DNA of 64,000 bases, from assembly GCA_030549815.1 (NCBI GenBank), contig JAUQQQ010000005.1, positions 6,739 to 70,738 of the forward strand. Direction: 5' to 3'. This document shows, one piece after another, positions 25,497 to 33,536 of this stretch. A model generated the notes under the pieces. That model saw only the letters and a list, made by a program, of their open reading frames with translations, searched no databases and had not been told where the DNA came from. The position numbers and the translations under genes are program-made. The number at the start of each line of letters is the position of its first letter. The stretch's first letter is position 1. The stretch is from a bacterium. GTDB lineage: Bacteria; DRYD01.

Positions 25497-27095
25497 ATGA
25501 TAAAAAAAAAAGAAGGATTTTACCTTTACTTATGGTTAGGACTTTTTGCATTATTTATTAGTTTTTTTGGTATCGTTCTATTCAATTACGTAGGAGCGGA
25601 TATCAAAGCAACTAGGAGCATTTACCAAGACTCCAGACTCTACTATGATATAAAATCAATTCTAGTATCAATTACAGAAATATACAGAGAAAGTAACTTC
25701 AACTCCCCCAATAACCCTTCAATTCGAAGAGGACAGTATGAATACAAAAATGGATCAAAAAGATATCAAGTTGATTATGAAATCAATCCATTAAATAGCA
25801 CCCATTTACTAATTGAAATTCATGAGAATAACAAACTACGGGCAAGAGGAATTGTTAAATGGAGAGAAAACATAAGTGATTTTGCTCTTATTACAGCAAA
25901 AAATAATGAAGAGTTTAAATCAAATTCATTCTATTCTTCTGCAGCAATTTTCTCTAACACCATAACTATACCCGAAACTAACAGATTTATTTTTAATAAA
26001 GTAGTAATAAATGAAGATACAATAGTAAATGGAATAGGTCCACTTAATAACCTACAGGAAATGCAAAAATTTGCTCAATTTATCGAAATTAATAACTCTC
26101 TTAACGATATAATTCAATACTATAATCAAGTACTAAACGAAGTATATGACAAAATTGTTACACCCTTAAACTCAACATATACTTCGCAATACTCTAATGC
26201 AGGAAATGTTGTTTTAACACCATATGGAGGAATATATATCAAACGAATAAATACACTTCAAGCAATAAAAATAAACTTCTCAATTCAAAATGGTAATCAA
26301 ATCATAGAATTCTTCGGAATACAAAATAATAATATTACCGGTCGCATTGCAACATTTAAACATATATTACAAGAACCTGACGTAGTTACCTTACAAAATG
26401 GAAATGAAGTAATTTCAAATGATAATACCATAATCAATAGCATTAGATCTCATAACCCCTACATAGTAATAAACCCCATATCAAAAATATTACAACACAA
26501 TGATCTTTATACAATCTACACAAACCTAAATATGGATAACACCATAATATACAGCGAAATACCTTTAGAAATAGGAAGTGATGGTCCTGACAACCCTAAT
26601 AATGCTACAATAAACACAAAAATAATGATAATAACTCCTAACAATATTATCATCAAAAATAACATCCTTTACTCCCACTTTAATAATCTATCAAATTACA
26701 TTAATCAAATAGAAAACAATAATACAATCAATTTAAGAGATAGTAACGATCTATTACGAATAATAGCAGATAACATAACTTTTGATACATCTGAATTCCA
26801 ACAAACTGATACTAACAAAAATACAATGTGCTTGAATGGACAGTTTGTAGCAATGTTTAGTAGAAATAGTCAAGTGAGAATTACTAACCCTAGCAACATT
26901 TCCAATTTCTTCATCTTTGGATCTCTACAAGCATCACAGAGAATGAACTTTGATCAAAATTTTCAAGAAAGATATATATTAGATGGAAGACTTACTACTT
27001 TAGACCCAACTCTATCAATTATTATTGATAACATAGACAATTCTATATACCTTAATAAAGTGAGTGTCTTGGGAATAGAAATATTGAGCAAATAA
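25497..27095 (+). CDS. N-rich membrane-anchored / secreted protein (hypothetical)
   Basis: 532 aa. N-terminal hydrophobic anchor (FYLYLWLGLFALFISFFGIVLF). Asn/Ile-rich, beta-rich composition. It sits immediately upstream of the prepilin-Hint gene. Confidence 0.45.
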   Translation: MIKKKEGFYLYLWLGLFALFISFFGIVLFNYVGADIKATRSIYQDSRLYYDIKSILVSITEIYRESNFNSPNNPSIRRGQYEYKNGSKRYQVDYEINPLNSTHLLIEIHENNKLRARGIVKWRENISDFALITAKNNEEFKSNSFYSSAAIFSNTITIPETNRFIFNKVVINEDTIVNGIGPLNNLQEMQKFAQFIEINNSLNDIIQYYNQVLNEVYDKIVTPLNSTYTSQYSNAGNVVLTPYGGIYIKRINTLQAIKINFSIQNGNQIIEFFGIQNNNITGRIATFKHILQEPDVVTLQNGNEVISNDNTIINSIRSHNPYIVINPISKILQHNDLYTIYTNLNMDNTIIYSEIPLEIGSDGPDNPNNATINTKIMIITPNNIIIKNNILYSHFNNLSNYINQIENNNTINLRDSNDLLRIIADNITFDTSEFQQTDTNKNTMCLNGQFVAMFSRNSQVRITNPSNISNFFIFGSLQASQRMNFDQNFQERYILDGRLTTLDPTLSIIIDNIDNSIYLNKVSVLGIEILSK

Positions 27096-27107: not shown

Positions 27108-28385
27108 ATGAAAACAAAAAAAGGAATTACTATCGTTGAAGTCGTAATTAGTTTTACTATTGCTCTTATACTCATCATGTCCCTATATATGATAGTTTAC
27201 TGGGGAACTAATACAAACACCATAAACAATAAAATAATAAGAATAAACAACGCAATGACTTTTATTCAACAAGATATGCTTAATAATACACCATTGTATT
27301 TCGAATTACAATCAAACGGTTCCATAAACCCTAAGCAAAATATCAACGATATATTAAAAACAAGATTACAACAATTCAAGTTAAATGATCCCATCATCAT
27401 AAACGTGAGATTGGTAAGCTTTCAAAGAGAAAGAATAAACAATTCATTACAACAATTCAATAATATATATAGAGTAAGGATAGAAATAGAATGGATACAT
27501 AAAGGACAAAATAGACGTTATCAAACCGATTTTCTTATTAGCGACTATAGCCTAAAAAAAATCTCTTCCTCACAAGATCCCGTATCAACCAGCCTTAGGA
27601 TTAATTTACCAAATAACTACTATTCGCCCGTAATCAGAGAAACCTATGTTGATGGCATTCCTGGTGTTAATCCAGGCACTCCTTCTAGTCCAGGCACTCC
27701 TTCTGACCCAGGCACTCCTTCTGACCCAGGCACTCCTTCTGACCCAGGCACTCCTTCTGACCCAGGCACTCCTTCTGAGCCAGGCACCCCCTCTGACCCA
27801 GGTGGAGGTTTTGGAGGTGGAGGATGTTTTGAAAAAGGAACACTTATACCTGTCTGCAAAAATGGAAAAATTTTAACCAAAAATATTGAAGATATAAATG
27901 AGCAAGATTTTGTTGTATCTTTCCATAATAACCAAATTATGCCCATAAAAGTCGAAAAGTTACATGCACACGAAGGAGAATTCCAAATTGTTCAAATTCA
28001 AACCAAATCAGGATTGACCTTCAGAGCAACACATAATCATCCTGCAATAGTTAATAACTGTCTCAGAAAATTTGGAAAGCTACAAATTGGAGACTATATC
28101 ACTATTCTAAAAGATAATCAAATAATTACCGACCAGATATCCAATATATCCACACAAATAATCAAAGGTAAAGTATATTCTATTGAGATTGAATCAAATG
28201 AAAAATATTGCTATAACCACTTTATAGGAAATAATGATGCTTTTATGTTAGTAAACTGTGGTATGATGAAAATTAGTAAAGTATTAGCTAATCTATGTGT
28301 TTCAACTCTTTCATTAATTACAAGCATAGCTATAGGAACAGTAGTTAAAACCTATGGATTACCAGGAGGTTCACAAACAAAATAA
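27108..28385 (+). CDS. Prepilin-type N-terminal domain protein with a (PGTPSD)7 linker, a Hint (intein/Hedgehog-like) autoprocessing domain and a C-terminal hydrophobic tail
   Basis: SD AAGGGGGTG upstream. N-terminus KKG|ITIVEVVISFTIALILIM is the class III signal / prepilin cleavage-methylation motif. The Hint domain spans 27825-28256. It opens with GGGG|CFEKGTLIPV (Gly-Cys-Phe), includes the TxxH block (RATHNHPA) and ends VYSIEIESNEKYCYNHFIGNNDAFMLVN|C. Confidence 0.65.
   Translation: MKTKKGITIVEVVISFTIALILIMSLYMIVYWGTNTNTINNKIIRINNAMTFIQQDMLNNTPLYFELQSNGSINPKQNINDILKTRLQQFKLNDPIIINVRLVSFQRERINNSLQQFNNIYRVRIEIEWIHKGQNRRYQTDFLISDYSLKKISSSQDPVSTSLRINLPNNYYSPVIRETYVDGIPGVNPGTPSSPGTPSDPGTPSDPGTPSDPGTPSDPGTPSEPGTPSDPGGGFGGGGCFEKGTLIPVCKNGKILTKNIEDINEQDFVVSFHNNQIMPIKVEKLHAHEGEFQIVQIQTKSGLTFRATHNHPAIVNNCLRKFGKLQIGDYITILKDNQIITDQISNISTQIIKGKVYSIEIESNEKYCYNHFIGNNDAFMLVNCGMMKISKVLANLCVSTLSLITSIAIGTVVKTYGLPGGSQTK
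27672..27797 (+). repeat. Perfect or near-perfect 18-nt tandem repeat x7 (coding, PGTPS[D/S/E])
   Basis: ccaggcactccttctgac repeated 7 times with 2-3 single-nucleotide variants. In frame inside the 27108-28385 CDS. It creates spurious ORFs on both strands (27644-27946, 27646-27876). Confidence 0.9.
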
Positions 28386-28617
28386 TAAAAAAGATACTAT
28401 AGAGAAATTCCACGTAATGATAAATTACTAAAGAAATCAATACACATCTAAACTATAACCAAAGATTCATGATCACCATTTTCATTTTTTTAACCCTTCC
28501 AGTTTTCTTTCTACACTTTTTAAAGATAATTTTAGTTTATAGATAATTTTGTATGTTTACCATGAAACATCTATTTGTTTTGATAAAAATTTATTATCTA
28601 TTAAACCTTATAAAATC

Positions 28618-28836
28618 TCAATATTTCTTTTCTAAAATTGCATTAAATTCATTTTCACAATCACAGCAACATTTGCAATAGTTACAGATTGAACATTTTA
28701 TACCATAACAATCCAAACAATCACATTCTTCTTTATTTTTGCAAGAACAGTATCCACTTTCTGTACAACATCTACAGTTGTATCCTTCGCATTTACAATT
28801 CCTACACTTACATAATAACATGATTAAGTTCATCAA
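28618..28836 (-). CDS. Small Cys-rich protein (22 Cys in 72 aa), hypothetical
   Basis: Uninterrupted minus-strand frame in otherwise stop-dense AT-rich DNA. CxC/CC/CxxC motifs throughout (CKCRNCKCEGYNCRCCTESGYCSCKNKEECDCLDCYGIKCSICNYCKCCCDC). Start is TTG at 28836 or ATG at 28833. There is no strong SD, so coding status is uncertain. Confidence 0.4.
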   Translation of the reverse strand: MMNLIMLLCKCRNCKCEGYNCRCCTESGYCSCKNKEECDCLDCYGIKCSICNYCKCCCDCENEFNAILEKKY

Positions 28837-29007
28837 AAAACGTAGATTATCAACAATCCTTTCCTGATAACCTCACAATGGTTCGGACATTTTGTCATAA
28901 TAAAACCCTTCACTTTACCACTACTTTAGTGATAACCAAATTATAAATCAAACTCTTTAACCCGCACATGTATACCAGCATTCTTGCAATGATTTTATTA
29001 AAAAATT

Positions 29008-29316
29008 TTAAAAAACTATTTGTAATTTAGTTAAATTTTGTCTATGTCCTCTTTTCTTTCTGTATCTTTTTTTGGGAGTATATTTGAAGTCTACGATTTT
29101 AGGGCCTTTAAAGTGTTCTAAAACCCTGGCTTTTATAGTTTTGTTAAGATAAGGCTTACCTACTTGCAATTCTTTTCCATCATAAAAGAGTAACGTATTT
29201 TTAATTTCTATTTCTTTCCCCACTTCTTCATCTATTTTTTCAGTAGTGATTACTTGCCCATTTTCTACTTTGTATTGATGTCCTTTCACCTCTATTATTG
29301 CAAACACGCTTACCAC
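29008..29316 (-). CDS. rplU: 50S ribosomal protein L21 (bL21)
   Basis: IIEVKGHQYKV.NGQVI..EKI...G.EI (the L21 N-terminal pattern A.IETGGKQYKV). C-terminal FKYTPKKRYRKKRGHRQNLT matches the conserved KRRK.Y.RK.GHRQ block. Confidence 0.85.
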   Translation of the reverse strand: MVSVFAIIEVKGHQYKVENGQVITTEKIDEEVGKEIEIKNTLLFYDGKELQVGKPYLNKTIKARVLEHFKGPKIVDFKYTPKKRYRKKRGHRQNLTKLQIVF

Positions 29317-29379
29317 TCCTTAACTTTTGGGTTCTATTAATAACAATTCTATAATCTTCCAAAACTGTCCTTCTTTAAT

Positions 29380-31827
29380 TTACATTCTAATTGGGAATTG
29401 AATAGCAAACTTAGAATAATATTTATTAAACTCTGCGGTTAGGCCCAACCTCACTTTTCTATTTTGTTTATCTTGATAAAATGCACCAAATCTTAAGGTA
29501 AATTCAGATAGATTATTTTGGAAAATATAATCAGATCCTTGCAAATTTTCAATTACCTGAATTTCCTTGTTATTCAAAAGAAAATATCCCCTCACAGTAA
29601 GGAAAAAGATATCTGTATTTGTAAAATCAATTTTATCAATCCCTAAATAAAATTGATCAATACTTTGTTGATCTACTTTTATATTTTTTTGCCATAACAA
29701 ATTTTGAGTATTAGTTACATAATTCAATTTAGAAAGAATATTATTTTCAAATCCCAAAACTATATTTTCTTTATTTCTTGTTTTCCAAGAAAATTCTAAT
29801 CTAAAGTTTTTAGTATTAGAATTAAATTTTAGTGTTTCTTGAACACTTAAATCAACCCCTGTGTAAGAATTAATTTTATTACTCAAATTATAATTATTAA
29901 AATTTGCAAGCACATAAAATTTTGCTTGATCAAATAAAAAGTAAAGTCCATAACCTAAATAATTTGTTTTTCTTTCAAAAGGTATTTGACTTCGAAAGTA
30001 ATTTTGATTTGAGGATTCCACTTTTCCTGTAGATATAATTACACCCAATTTCATATTTTCTTTTAGGTATTTGTCGGCAACAAAATTAGTTCCCCACAAT
30101 TTACCATCAAAGTTAAATTGATTAGATTCAAATTTCTCAAAAACATTGAAATTTCTTAATTTTACGTTTTTAGAAAATTTTGATTCCTCACTATCGCTAC
30201 TTAAGTTCAATACAACTTGATTCCTTATGTGCTCAGAAATATTTGTTCCAATAATAAAATCCTGGATTCTACTGCTATTAGCAATACTACTTCCACTTGC
30301 TGAATTTATAGTAAAGATAATAGAAGAATTATCTCCTACATTATCAAACCAGGAGACTTTAATATTAGGGTTAAGTACAAAATGGCTTACAAAGTTTAGA
30401 TCAAACTGACCACTGACATTGGACCCTTGGTTTTCTATTAAATAGTAGGGTTTATTTAAATGTATATCTTGCCCTACATAAAGGTGTAAAATAGTATTGT
30501 TTAGATTCAAGTTAGAAGCATTATATACAAGTATTGGTCGCAACATAGTATTCGGATCACCGTTAATAAAGTAAGCAAAATTCAACAATTCAGCATTAGA
30601 ATTATTTACGATTATGTGTCTTACATTATTATCCAGATCCATCAATACTGGAGTTTGAATTTGTATTGGATTAGTCCAACCTGATTGAAACAAATTTATT
30701 CCTGCAGCAGAAAAGTTATTCACAGTACTCCCCTTAACTCTTATCATTCCTGTATTTAAAATACTTCCTGAATTTACGTTAGCAAAATAAATTCCACTCG
30801 TAGAATCAACAGTTCCACTAAATGAACTATCCCAACTATTAAAAACATTTATTATTCCATTATTTGAAACATTAACAAAATTACATCTAAAAACAGCAAT
30901 ACCATCATTGGATAAAAAATTGTAGTTAGATCCCGATAGTAAAATATCCGTTTGAATTAAACCACTATTTTGAATATTTACAACATTATTTGTATTATTA
31001 GGATTATAAACCAATAATGCTTGATTACGAAATAAAGAGGCAAGGGAATTAGTTGAATTAGCAATATTGAAAATATTTCCATCGTTGGAAAAATTAACAT
31101 TTATAGAGTTAGAAAAAGATAAAGAATTAAAAGTATAATTATATACTCCTCCAATAATTTGAGTATTTTGAAGATTGATCGTATTTTGAATATTACCAGA
31201 ATTTTGAAAATTATCTGCGATTTTCGTATCAAAAGAAGTTAAAGAAAAATTATATAGATTATCTATGTTAGAATTTTGAACATTTATATTGTTAGTTATA
31301 TTTCCTATATTTTGGATATTAGAAAAATCAACGTTAACTGAATATAGAGAATAGTTATAAAAATTTCCTGTCGGTTGATTTGTTATATCAATGTTATTAT
31401 TAATAATACCATTATTTTGCAAAAAAGAATTTTGACTATAATTTACCCAATTATATCCAACCCAACTAACAACGTTTATAAAATTAAACCCTAATAAATT
31501 CTGGTTATTAATGTTTGCATAATTAGATATAGTGGAATTGTTGGTGAAAGTTGATGAACTACCACTTCCAGTTCCTCCATAAACATAGGTAGCAAAATTA
31601 TGATTCCAACCGTTATTAAAAGAAGAAGAAAAGGTATTATTAAGATTAGAGTTAATCGTAAGTGTAGATGAATTAATAATAGGAGGATTAATTACAGTAA
31701 AACCAAAAGGACTTCCATCAATAGATGCTGCTGTGTGAACTTGATTCCCCGCATAGACAATATTTAAAAAAAGCAAAAAAATAATAAACGAAAAAATAGT
31801 TAAACTTAAAATTACTTTCATACCCAA
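29380..31827 (-). CDS. Large secreted Asn/Ser-rich repeat protein, probable outer-membrane/surface protein (autotransporter-like architecture)
   Basis: Classical signal peptide (MKVILSLTIFSFIIFLLFLNIVYA|GNQ). About 550 aa of N/S/G-rich beta-type repeats (NxSG, NIQNS patterns). The C-terminal roughly 250 aa has alternating hydrophobic/polar residues suggestive of a beta-barrel. Confidence 0.5.
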   Translation of the reverse strand: MGMKVILSLTIFSFIIFLLFLNIVYAGNQVHTAASIDGSPFGFTVINPPIINSSTLTINSNLNNTFSSSFNNGWNHNFATYVYGGTGSGSSSTFTNNSTISNYANINNQNLLGFNFINVVSWVGYNWVNYSQNSFLQNNGIINNNIDITNQPTGNFYNYSLYSVNVDFSNIQNIGNITNNINVQNSNIDNLYNFSLTSFDTKIADNFQNSGNIQNTINLQNTQIIGGVYNYTFNSLSFSNSINVNFSNDGNIFNIANSTNSLASLFRNQALLVYNPNNTNNVVNIQNSGLIQTDILLSGSNYNFLSNDGIAVFRCNFVNVSNNGIINVFNSWDSSFSGTVDSTSGIYFANVNSGSILNTGMIRVKGSTVNNFSAAGINLFQSGWTNPIQIQTPVLMDLDNNVRHIIVNNSNAELLNFAYFINGDPNTMLRPILVYNASNLNLNNTILHLYVGQDIHLNKPYYLIENQGSNVSGQFDLNFVSHFVLNPNIKVSWFDNVGDNSSIIFTINSASGSSIANSSRIQDFIIGTNISEHIRNQVVLNLSSDSEESKFSKNVKLRNFNVFEKFESNQFNFDGKLWGTNFVADKYLKENMKLGVIISTGKVESSNQNYFRSQIPFERKTNYLGYGLYFLFDQAKFYVLANFNNYNLSNKINSYTGVDLSVQETLKFNSNTKNFRLEFSWKTRNKENIVLGFENNILSKLNYVTNTQNLLWQKNIKVDQQSIDQFYLGIDKIDFTNTDIFFLTVRGYFLLNNKEIQVIENLQGSDYIFQNNLSEFTLRFGAFYQDKQNRKVRLGLTAEFNKYYSKFAIQFPIRM

Positions 31828-31973: not shown

Positions 31974-33536
31974 ATGATGAAATTAGGGCAAATAGGGTTA
32001 GGATACTGGGGAGAAAATATATTCAGAAATCTTTTAAAAATCGACAAAGTAAACTCAATTACTATATTTGATGAAGATAAAACAAGAATCAATTACATTA
32101 TTGAAAAATACAAAGGAGTAAAAGAAATTTTGGTAGCAGAAAAAAAGGAAGATCTAATAAACCTCGATTGTATTTTTATATCCACTCCCGCAGCAACACA
32201 TTATGACTTAGCAAAGTTCTTTATTGAAAACAAAAAACACATCTTCGTAGAAAAACCACTATCCCTAAAAGTTAGCCAGGCAATAGAATTAAAAGAACTA
32301 TCAAAAAAGAATGGAGTAATCTTAATGGTAGGGCACCTACTGCTCTACCACCCAGCAGTAAAAAAAATCAAACAAATAATAAAAGAAGGATCCTTAGGAA
32401 GAATATACTACATTTATTCAAACAGGTTGAATCTAGGTAAATTAAGGACAGAAGAAAACATACTGTGGTCTTTCGCACCACATGATATATCCGTAATCCT
32501 TTATTTATTGGAAGAAGAACCAAAAAATGTATCCGCATTCGCATCAGCACATATAAACCCAGAAATTTTTGATATAACACTTACAACTCTGGAATTTTCT
32601 AATAACATTAAAGCCCATATATTCGTTAGTTGGCTAAACCCATTCAAAGAACACAAAATGACAATCATAGGATCAAAAGGAATGTTAGTTTTTGATGATC
32701 TAACAAAAGAAAAATTATTTTTCTACCCACACAAAATAGAATGGAAAGAAGGAAAGATACCAGTTGCAAACAAAGCAGAATACCAAACAATAGAAATTGA
32801 AAACTCTGAACCTTTATACAATGAATTAACGCACTTTTTAGAATGTATAGAAAAAAATTCGGAACCTTTAACTAATGCTGACGAATCTATTAGAGTGTTA
32901 AAAATAATAGAAAAAGCAGAGAATTACATAAAAAATAACCGAGAAAGAAAAAATCAAGAAAGAGAATATTTCATCCATGAAAGCAGCTATATAGATGAAA
33001 ACGTTGAGATTGGTAAAAATACTAAAATATGGCATTTTTGTCACGTTTTAAGAAACACAAAAATAGGAGAAAATGTTATATGTGGGCAGAACGTAATGAT
33101 TGGTCCTGATGTGATTATCGGTAATGGTTGCAAAATACAGAACAATGTTTCAATATATAAAGGTGTTGAATTAGAAGATGATGTTTTTTGCGGTCCTTCC
33201 TGTGTATTCACAAATGTATATAATCCAAGGGCTTTCATCGAAAGAAAAAATGAATTTAGGAAAACATTGGTAAAAAAAGGAGCAACAATAGGAGCAAATG
33301 CAACAATAGTGTGCGGAGTAACTATCGGGAAATATTCTTTCATAGGTGCAGGAGCAGTTGTTAATAAAGATGTACCTGACTATGCTCTTGTTGTAGGAGT
33401 ACCTGCAAAACAAATAGGATGGGTATGTAAATGCGGAACACGACTAAAATTTGAACAAAACTACGCAGTATGCCAATATTGTCAAAACGAATATAAATTA
33501 GAAGAAAATAAAGTTATACCTGTAAAAGAAAAATAG
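31974..33536 (+). CDS. Fusion of a Gfo/Idh/MocA NAD-dependent sugar oxidoreductase (WbpB-like) with a left-handed beta-helix (hexapeptide) N-acetyltransferase (WbpD-like)
   Basis: N-terminal Rossmann [14 protein letters not shown], the [14 protein letters not shown] block and FVEKPLS (Gfo/Idh/MocA motifs). The C-terminal roughly 180 aa contains tandem hexapeptide repeats ([44 protein letters not shown]...) ending in a Cys4 knuckle (CKCG...CQYCQ). Confidence 0.7.

Follow-up and report, generated by a model that had tools for sequence, protein, structure and literature searches.

Does the minus strand directly downstream of rplU, in the 64,000-nucleotide stretch of DNA analyzed here (the window), encode a protein, and could this protein act in the manner of a metallothionein (MT)? 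The question is raised by a short open reading frame (ORF) exceptionally rich in cysteine codons, which an earlier note on this DNA had likened to metallothioneins or to RiPP/ranthipeptide-type precursors. Our results show that this Cys-rich ORF (Cys ORF) is real and far from what chance would produce. From its sequence features, we put the probability that it encodes a translated, lineage-restricted, metallothionein-like thiolate protein at roughly 0.4. This refers to a metallothionein-like function only, and membership in a known bacterial MT family is not claimed.

A Cys-rich open reading frame downstream of rplU

The window has a G+C content of 29%. On its minus strand, as the earlier note had described, a frame is open for 72 codons from TTG 28836, the earliest possible start, to the stop codon at 28620-28618; it lies within a stop-to-stop stretch of 84 codons (28872-28621). 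The translation reads (L)MNLIMLLCKCRNCKCEGYNCRCCTESGYCSCKNKEECDCLDCYGIKCSICNYCKCCCDCENEFNAILEKKY and contains both motifs to which attention had been drawn, CKCRNCKCEGYNCRCC and CKCCCDCENE, while the 22 cysteines claimed there came down to 19 upon recounting. Both the allele L001 and the gene call P0001 start at ATG 28821, and the resulting 67-aa form has a Cys content of 28%, a mass of 7.74 kDa and a pI of 6.2. Its cysteines are arranged in seven CxC, four CxxC and three adjacent CC spacings (one CC and one CCC). The product further contains five Tyr and one Phe (aromatics 9% of the residues) but no His, and its C-terminal 12 residues, ENEFNAILEKKY, are free of Cys. The coordinates of all features of the locus, and those of the tRNA genes found after rplU in related genomes, are compiled in Table 1.

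Table 1. Features of the rplU-Cys ORF locus in the window and tRNA genes following rplU in related loci.
Feature	Position	Strand	Description or basis
rplU (ribosomal protein L21)	29008..29316	-	102 aa from GTG; PF00829, E 2.9e-31
Leader, rplU to upstream ORF	28899..29007	-	~70% identical homologue of the L001 leader; flanks 100%
SD-like GAAGGG	28906..28911	-	7 nt before the ATG of the upstream ORF; sequence, alignment
Upstream ORF	28833..28898	-	21 codons, MTKCPNHCEVIRKGLLIIYVF*; in window and L042, absent from L001
T6 run at junction of upstream ORF and Cys ORF	28835..28840	-	T6 in window and L042
Cys-rich ORF	28618..28833	-	71 aa from ATG 28833 (putative coupled start), 67 aa from ATG 28821
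tRNA-His(GTG) after rplU	L002 6321-6396		ARAGORN
tRNA-His(GTG) after rplU	L005 6333-6408		ARAGORN
tRNA-His(GTG) after rplU	L006 6321-6394		ARAGORN
tRNA-His(GTG) after rplU	L043 2091-2166		ARAGORN
tRNA-His(GTG) after rplU	L046 766-841		ARAGORN
tRNA-His(GTG) after rplU	L047 3113-3188		ARAGORN
tRNA-His(GTG) after rplU	L048 1815-1889		ARAGORN

The cysteine bias is not random and the frame is gene-like

The earlier note had judged so strong a bias unlikely to arise by chance, and the statistics agree with this view. Nineteen of the 21 TGY triplets of the Cys ORF lie in frame (frame 0), and the binomial probability of at least 19 Cys among 72 codons is ~8e-13 under the local composition. Of 20,000 shuffles that preserved dinucleotides, none reached 19 TGY triplets, the highest number in any frame being 14, and only three left frame 0 open. 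The window contains 295 stretches that are open for 50 codons or more, and of these the Cys ORF has the highest Cys density. By comparison, the 45 long ORFs of the window contain 102 Cys in 17,183 codons (0.59%), indicating a Cys-poor proteome, and the 67 codons of the Cys ORF hold about one-fifth as many Cys codons as ~52 kb of genes. No tandem repeats were detected by Tandem Repeats Finder and no direct repeats are present inside the Cys ORF, ruling out repeat expansion as the origin of the TGT bias. Since the genome is Cys-poor and such DNA repeats are lacking, neither drift nor repeat expansion is a likely source of the Cys bias.

The codon usage was evaluated by a coding-versus-off-frame log-odds score derived from the genes of the window, with Cys codons excluded. 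The 48 non-Cys codons of the Cys ORF score 0.50 bits per codon, which equals the median of real-gene chunks. Real-gene chunks of 67 codons reach 0.475 ± 0.13 and spurious overlapping ORFs 0.14 ± 0.25, and 6.9% of the spurious ORFs score as high as the Cys ORF.

That this region is instead a non-coding element of either strand, such as a structured RNA, is hardly credible. The strict triplet phasing of TGY indicates coding, Rfam returned no match at the gathering score in the window and only chance-level matches locally up to E = 10, and the fold z-scores of the Cys ORF region relative to shuffles are -0.50 for the plus strand and +0.27 for the minus strand. G+C is somewhat higher in the leader preceding the Cys ORF, as it might be in a non-coding element, but the fold of this leader is not significant either (z = -1.05). 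A structured RNA on the plus strand, which the earlier note had named as the alternative that would undo the ORF, was thus not seen. For the leader as well as the plus strand, a riboswitch, a structured RNA and a terminator were all rejected, as Rfam was empty, the folds were non-significant and no terminator-like site was present.

The Cys ORF is an orphan restricted to one species

Searches covering ~15 billion proteins and the JGI metagenomes retrieved only two copies of the Cys ORF, both conspecific and nearly identical. P0001 (67 aa, 98% identical) was the sole match in a word-indexed search of 5.8 billion protein clusters and again the single match in an exhaustive phmmer search of 1.84 billion representatives, while the scan of the JGI metagenomes yielded a single contig, L042 (Ga0105160_1000509). 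No match was obtained in the viral (IMG/VR) scan, nor in Pfam, NCBIfam, PHROGs, PADLOC or the PDB sequences, even at permissive thresholds, under HMMER compositional filters that may mask weak Cys-driven similarity. L042 and L001 (Logan DRR082460) belong to the same species as the window, with flanks 96-100% identical. The identity ladder of L21 drops from 98% to 76% or lower, with no intermediate relative found. Since there is no homolog outside the species, purifying selection on the Cys ORF is not demonstrable.

L001 and L042 are 100% identical to the window in rplU, over 900 nt of the gene that lies upstream, and in the Cys ORF as far as its nucleotide 159. Only three allele differences were found in the Cys ORF, namely D54N, a silent Ala change and Y67C, the last of which provides a 20th Cys. 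Two of the three are non-synonymous, and all are located within the last 45 nt, where a haplotype diverged by ~4% begins (the downstream spacer is 95.7% and the convergent gene 96.2% identical). As the differences are confined to this haplotype boundary, they permit no inference on purifying selection, and a dN/dS analysis of three such differences was set aside as uninformative. The Cys-rich body is unbroken in each of the three independent assemblies.

Upstream of the Cys ORF the alleles differ more strongly. Positions 28822-29007 of the window and 4886-5000 of L001 are ~70% identical and differ by a 77-nt block, with flanks 100% identical, and L042 combines the leader of the window with the downstream haplotype of L001. 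This pattern suggests a mosaic formed by recombination or, alternatively, a chimeric assembly of the Logan contig.

The rplU locus is rearranged and offers no vacated rpmA position

As stated in the earlier note, the Cys ORF directly follows rplU in the same orientation. The closest L21 proteins outside the species, at 66-76% identity, are those of 'Candidatus Calescibacterium' and of MAGs. This affinity places the window in the candidate phylum Calescamantes (EM19), a lineage that has been described from geothermal springs (PMC4791363, PMC5877337).

The earlier note had placed the Cys ORF in the position normally occupied by rpmA, the gene for L27, and had found L27 absent. A tblastn search with an E. 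coli L27 query indeed detected no L27 in the 64 kb of the window. The proposed rpmA slot, however, does not withstand comparison with relatives: in none of the 10 related rplU loci examined, which were fetched through L21, is rplU followed by rpmA. Instead, tRNA-His(GTG) is located directly 3' of rplU in seven of these loci (Table 1); it is nearly invariant and separated from rplU by ~3-33 nt. A class-III aminotransferase gene follows the tRNA in six of the seven, the exception being L006, whose next ORF looks fabF-like by eye. Where the genes ahead of rplU had been called, they were usually rpmB, which directly precedes rplU in three related loci, and a PilT-like ATPase, which is encoded farther upstream in several. 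Since rpmA never follows rplU in these relatives, the absence of L27 here is a trait of the lineage, and no rpmA slot has been vacated for the Cys ORF to occupy. The association with a missing rpmA is spurious and arises when the gene order of E. coli or Bacillus is expected in a lineage that lacks it, and the Cys ORF has no bearing on ribosome biology. That the Cys ORF itself might be L27 was rejected as well, as it has no Pfam match and the place after rplU is not that of rpmA in this lineage.

No Cys-rich ORF was found after rplU in the relatives (L21 identity at most 76%), where the earlier note had proposed to look for one. The usual partners rpmB, tRNA-His, the aminotransferase and PilT are found nowhere in the 64 kb of the window, and rplU stands between a gene for an 815-aa N-rich protein without Pfam match and the Cys ORF. 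Since these partners are missing, the rplU locus of this species must have been rearranged, and to judge by the gene order the Cys ORF sits at a lineage-specific rearrangement. Between rplU and the upstream ORF, the leader resembles neither tRNA-His nor the spacer of the relatives, and it was rejected as a remnant of either.

Two further observations concern the surroundings of rplU. Asn-rich proteins without Pfam match flank the locus, namely the 815-aa protein (29380-31827, minus strand) and a 532-aa protein (25497-27095, plus strand); the former has an N-terminal hydrophobic segment and, by eye, the look of a C-terminal beta-barrel or autotransporter. In addition, positions 31974-33536 (plus strand) encode a 520-aa fusion of a GFO/IDH/MocA-type NAD oxidoreductase with a hexapeptide-repeat acyltransferase, which is also present in L001 and looks like a fused sugar-nucleotide modification enzyme.

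One ribosome-binding site may serve the Cys ORF in both alleles

Most long ORFs of the window are preceded by Shine-Dalgarno (SD) motifs (GGAGG, AGGGGG, AAGGAG) at a distance of 6-9 nt. No SD is found directly before AUG 28833 or AUG 28821 in the window allele, and to this extent the earlier note was correct in seeing no convincing SD. It overlooked, however, an SD-bearing upstream ORF that ends in UGAUG: the UGA of this ORF (28835-28833) overlaps the AUG at 28833-28831, from which MNLIMLLCKC... would be read. Such an overlap is the classic arrangement for termination-reinitiation.

The window and L042 share a longer leader, in which the upstream ORF begins with GAAGGG-N7-ATG. In the allele L001, the sequence AAGGAG-N7-ATG directly precedes the Cys ORF (MLLCKC...), and the GAAGGG of the window aligns with it. 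The alignment of the two leaders has a forward score of 46, compared with 18.5 ± 2.8 for shuffles and 17 for the reverse complement. As the SD and ATG of L001 are homologous to those of the upstream ORF in the window, the same ribosome-binding site would serve the Cys ORF in both alleles, and we infer from the sequences that it drives the Cys ORF directly in L001 and via the coupled upstream ORF in the window. An invertible promoter as the origin of the divergent leader was rejected, the reverse-complement alignment being at chance level. The upstream ORF may have arisen when the SD-ATG-Cys start was duplicated in tandem, but the similarity is only weak.

The distance between ATG 28898 and ATG 28821 is 77 nt. 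One T added to the T6 run at the junction would bring both ORFs into a single frame of 93 aa with a hydrophobic, signal anchor-like N-terminus, MTKCPNHCEVIRKGLLIIYVFLMNLIMLLCKC... The window allele may accordingly be read in three ways, as a coupled pair of ORFs, as a frameshifted longer gene that reinitiates internally, or as a slippage site.

The region 28300-29450 contains no terminator-like site that would separate the Cys ORF from rplU, and promoter-like matches around the locus are near chance level. Co-transcription of the two is plausible. The next gene downstream (27108-28385, plus strand) is convergent, so that the Cys ORF is no leader peptide of an operon, and a Cys-sensing attenuator of a downstream operon was rejected for the same reason. 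This convergent gene encodes an unusual pseudopilin-Hint fusion of 425 aa, with an N-terminal prepilin methylation motif (PF07963), a run of PGTPSD-type repeats, a Gly-rich linker and a Hint/intein-splicing-like domain (PF14890), whose E of 1.9e-5 does not reach the Pfam cutoff. Between this gene and the Cys ORF, we noticed by eye a mini-ORF of 10 codons (28455-28487, minus strand; MKMVIMNLWL*) preceded by GGAAGGG-N8-ATG, which is probably due to chance.

The state of the leader and of the locus would also fit an ORF that is non-functional or untranslated, having recently arisen, or now decaying, at a rearrangement breakpoint and staying open by chance over a short time. In favour of this view, the Cys ORF is an orphan (one other protein cluster and one JGI contig, all conspecific), its locus is rearranged relative to all relatives, and the three differences at the haplotype boundary carry no measurable selection signal. 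The window allele has moreover lost the direct SD and may carry a frameshifted N-terminus. We nevertheless regard this explanation as unlikely, as 19 in-frame Cys codons in a genome with 0.59% Cys, and without repeats, are hard to obtain without selection, the codon usage is gene-like, and an SD has been kept in both leader variants, placed for a direct or a coupled start.

The neighbouring genes reveal neither a maturase nor a metal sensor

The scan of the neighbourhood comprised 28 products from ~14.8-47.9 kb of the window. They include accC, gyrA, a Lon-N-domain protein, minC, minD, minE, pseudopilin-like proteins (one with Hint), the GFO/IDH/MocA-hexapeptide fusion, a solute-binding protein, MoxR, an M42 peptidase, mutL, OsmC, an M16 peptidase and murB; the scanned neighbours are housekeeping or surface proteins. 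No metal sensor (ArsR/SmtB-like), regulator, transporter or other metal gene was found among these 28 neighbours; none lies within ~10 kb.

This neighbourhood bears on the second likeness suggested by the earlier note, that of a RiPP precursor (ranthipeptide/SCIFF-like or another Cys-modified peptide), for which the maturase would have to be encoded elsewhere. The note itself had seen no radical-SAM or other maturase nearby, and the scan confirmed it: the 28 neighbours include no radical-SAM protein or other RiPP maturase (cyclodehydratase, lanthipeptide synthetase, MNIO, peptidase) and no exporter. A small, Cys-rich product with a non-Cys segment at one end would be compatible with a precursor, and precursors without homologs are common among RiPPs. 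However, no NCBIfam match (e.g., SCIFF) was obtained at E <= 10, the cysteines extend from residue 4 across nearly the whole chain and leave no leader, and their number of 19 is far above that of known cores. We consider a RiPP precursor highly improbable.

A metallothionein-like function is the proposed reading

Our proposal is that a small, species-restricted gene encodes a protein of 67-71 aa (7.7 kDa) with 19 Cys and a short Cys-free tail, in which thiolate clusters would coordinate several ions of soft metals (Zn, Cd or Cu(I)). The protein would fold only upon metal binding and, by analogy with eukaryotic MTs containing 20 Cys, could accommodate ~6-7 divalent ions or a larger number of Cu(I) ions. 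The gene would be transcribed with rplU or just after it. Translation would start directly from the AAGGAG site in the L001 allele, and in the window allele it would proceed by termination-reinitiation after the 21-codon, SD-bearing upstream ORF (UGAUG). Translation, metal binding and any physiological role of the product are what we infer from these features, and composition alone does not separate metal buffering from other thiol-based roles.

The metallothionein-like composition recognized in the earlier note stands, with 28% Cys in CxC, CC and CxxC spacing. The mass is below the limit of ~10 kDa customary for MTs (67 aa, or 71 aa from the coupled start), and the high Cys content (19 of 67) in such motifs is likewise as in MTs. 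The product departs from the classical scarcity of aromatic residues (5 Tyr, 1 Phe), a criterion that is relaxed for plant and bacterial MTs, and metal-responsive linkage to a sensor such as smtB was not found among the 28 neighbours. The single-sequence AlphaFold model of the product has a pLDDT of 48.5 and draws short beta-hairpins at residues 3-18 with low confidence; the low pLDDT is compatible with metal-dependent folding, though non-diagnostic. MTs have been reported to fold only on metal binding, and MTs with 20 Cys to bind up to seven ions (PMC7558416). In 20 of 23 tests, moreover, resistance to Cd or Cu was conferred by small, homology-free Cys/His-rich proteins that had been mined from metagenomes (PMC11705764).

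The same coding evidence would equally fit a real protein that is not a metal buffer, and this we consider doubtful. The protein could be zinc-knuckle or zinc-ribbon-like, serve in thiol/redox chemistry or as a sulfur reserve in a Cys-poor proteome, or be an exported, disulfide-cross-linked peptide. A zinc-knuckle/zinc-ribbon-like protein would be structural or regulatory, and possibly ribosome-associated given its place after rplU, with which it is co-oriented and from which no terminator separates it. The four CxxC pairs and the low-confidence beta-hairpins at residues 3-18 agree with such a protein, whereas runs of CxC, CC and CCC are what one expects of thiolate clusters and less of a zinc ribbon. 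Export could come about if the hydrophobic N-terminal extension were joined by frameshifting, and the product of the two ORFs with one extra T (MTKCPNHCEVIRKGLLIIYVFLMNLIMLLCKC...) does resemble a signal anchor; the frame is broken at T6, however, in both assemblies with the extension, and L001 does without it. 'MLLC' is also not a canonical lipobox, for which the consensus is [LVI][ASTVI][GAS]C. Finally, no partner genes were found for a protein of any of these kinds.

Implications

If the metallothionein-like function of the Cys ORF is taken one step further, it could represent an unseen bacterial MT family of recent origin in one Calescamantes species, whose synthesis is gated by a short, Cys-containing upstream ORF. 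Such a reading, which would bring together a eukaryote-like Cys density (28%, no His), a rearranged rplU locus and termination-reinitiation at UGAUG, is speculative and on balance improbable. If it were true, the making of a Cys-expensive protein in a proteome with 0.59% Cys could depend on the passage of ribosomes through the leader, and the natural allele L001 would bypass the gate of the upstream ORF via its direct AAGGAG site. The two natural leaders, one with a direct SD and one with upstream-ORF coupling, offer a ready comparison for the expression of such a costly protein.

To our knowledge, very few bacterial MTs are known, essentially the SmtA/BmtA family and MymT. Those known contain comparatively little Cys, are assisted by His and adopt well-defined folds. 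A bacterial protein with a mammalian-level Cys density and no homologs would point to an independent origin of the metallothionein solution, and, should the metallothionein-like function hold, also provide a compact metal chelator derived from a thermophile. In any case, the Cys ORF illustrates that a strongly biased orphan gene can stay unnoticed in uncultivated lineages.

Comparison with known systems

SCIFF and ranthipeptide precursors are, like the product of the Cys ORF, small Cys-rich bacterial peptides. SCIFF, however, has ~6 Cys in ~45 residues and is always encoded beside its radical-SAM maturase, whereas the Cys ORF has no maturase nearby.

The SmtA/BmtA family (Pfam Metallothio_Pro), with SmtA of Synechococcus, PflQ2MT of Pseudomonas and TvMT, likewise comprises small bacterial Cys-rich proteins. 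The spacing CxCxxCxC is common to SmtA (CACEPCLC) and to the first eight residues of the Cys region of the Cys ORF product (CKCRNCKC). A BLASTP comparison with SmtA gave E = 1.5 over 11 residues, and neither Metallothio_Pro nor any other Pfam profile matched the Cys ORF at E <= 10. SmtA-type MTs have a well-defined fold built on a GATA-type zinc-finger core (PMC10612145). Unlike SmtA, the Cys ORF product has no His ligands, 19 instead of nine Cys and no sign of a zinc-finger core, and with no profile match either, membership in the SmtA/BmtA family was ruled out.

MymT of Mycobacterium tuberculosis is a copper-binding MT that was found as a non-annotated small ORF (PMC7558416). MymT and the Cys ORF have in common that they are lineage-restricted, small, easily overlooked and Cys-rich; no similarity to MymT was found in the exhaustive searches with the Cys ORF. 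MymT differs in its mass of 4.9 kDa and its far lower number of Cys, and its role in copper resistance has been shown experimentally, whereas the role of the Cys ORF product is predicted. The prokaryotic MT candidates of DeepMetagenome were, like the Cys ORF, found by composition and not by homology (PMC11705764). These candidates are reported to be, as a tendency, shorter (mean ~40 aa) and to favour His over Cys (PMC11705764); compared with them the Cys ORF product is atypical, being longer, without His and extreme in Cys.

Mammalian MT1/2 consist of 61 aa with 20 Cys and bind ~7 divalent metals. A BLASTP comparison with human MT2A gave E ~6-8 and aligned short Cys motifs only. The Cys ORF product differs from eukaryotic MTs in its six aromatic residues, its 12-residue Cys-free tail and its bacterial host, and its metal binding is only predicted. 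It resembles them in its size of ~7 kDa, its Cys content of 28% compared with ~33%, the dominance of CxC, CC and CxxC motifs, the lack of His, and a metal-free chain to which AlphaFold assigns no confident fold (PMC7558416).
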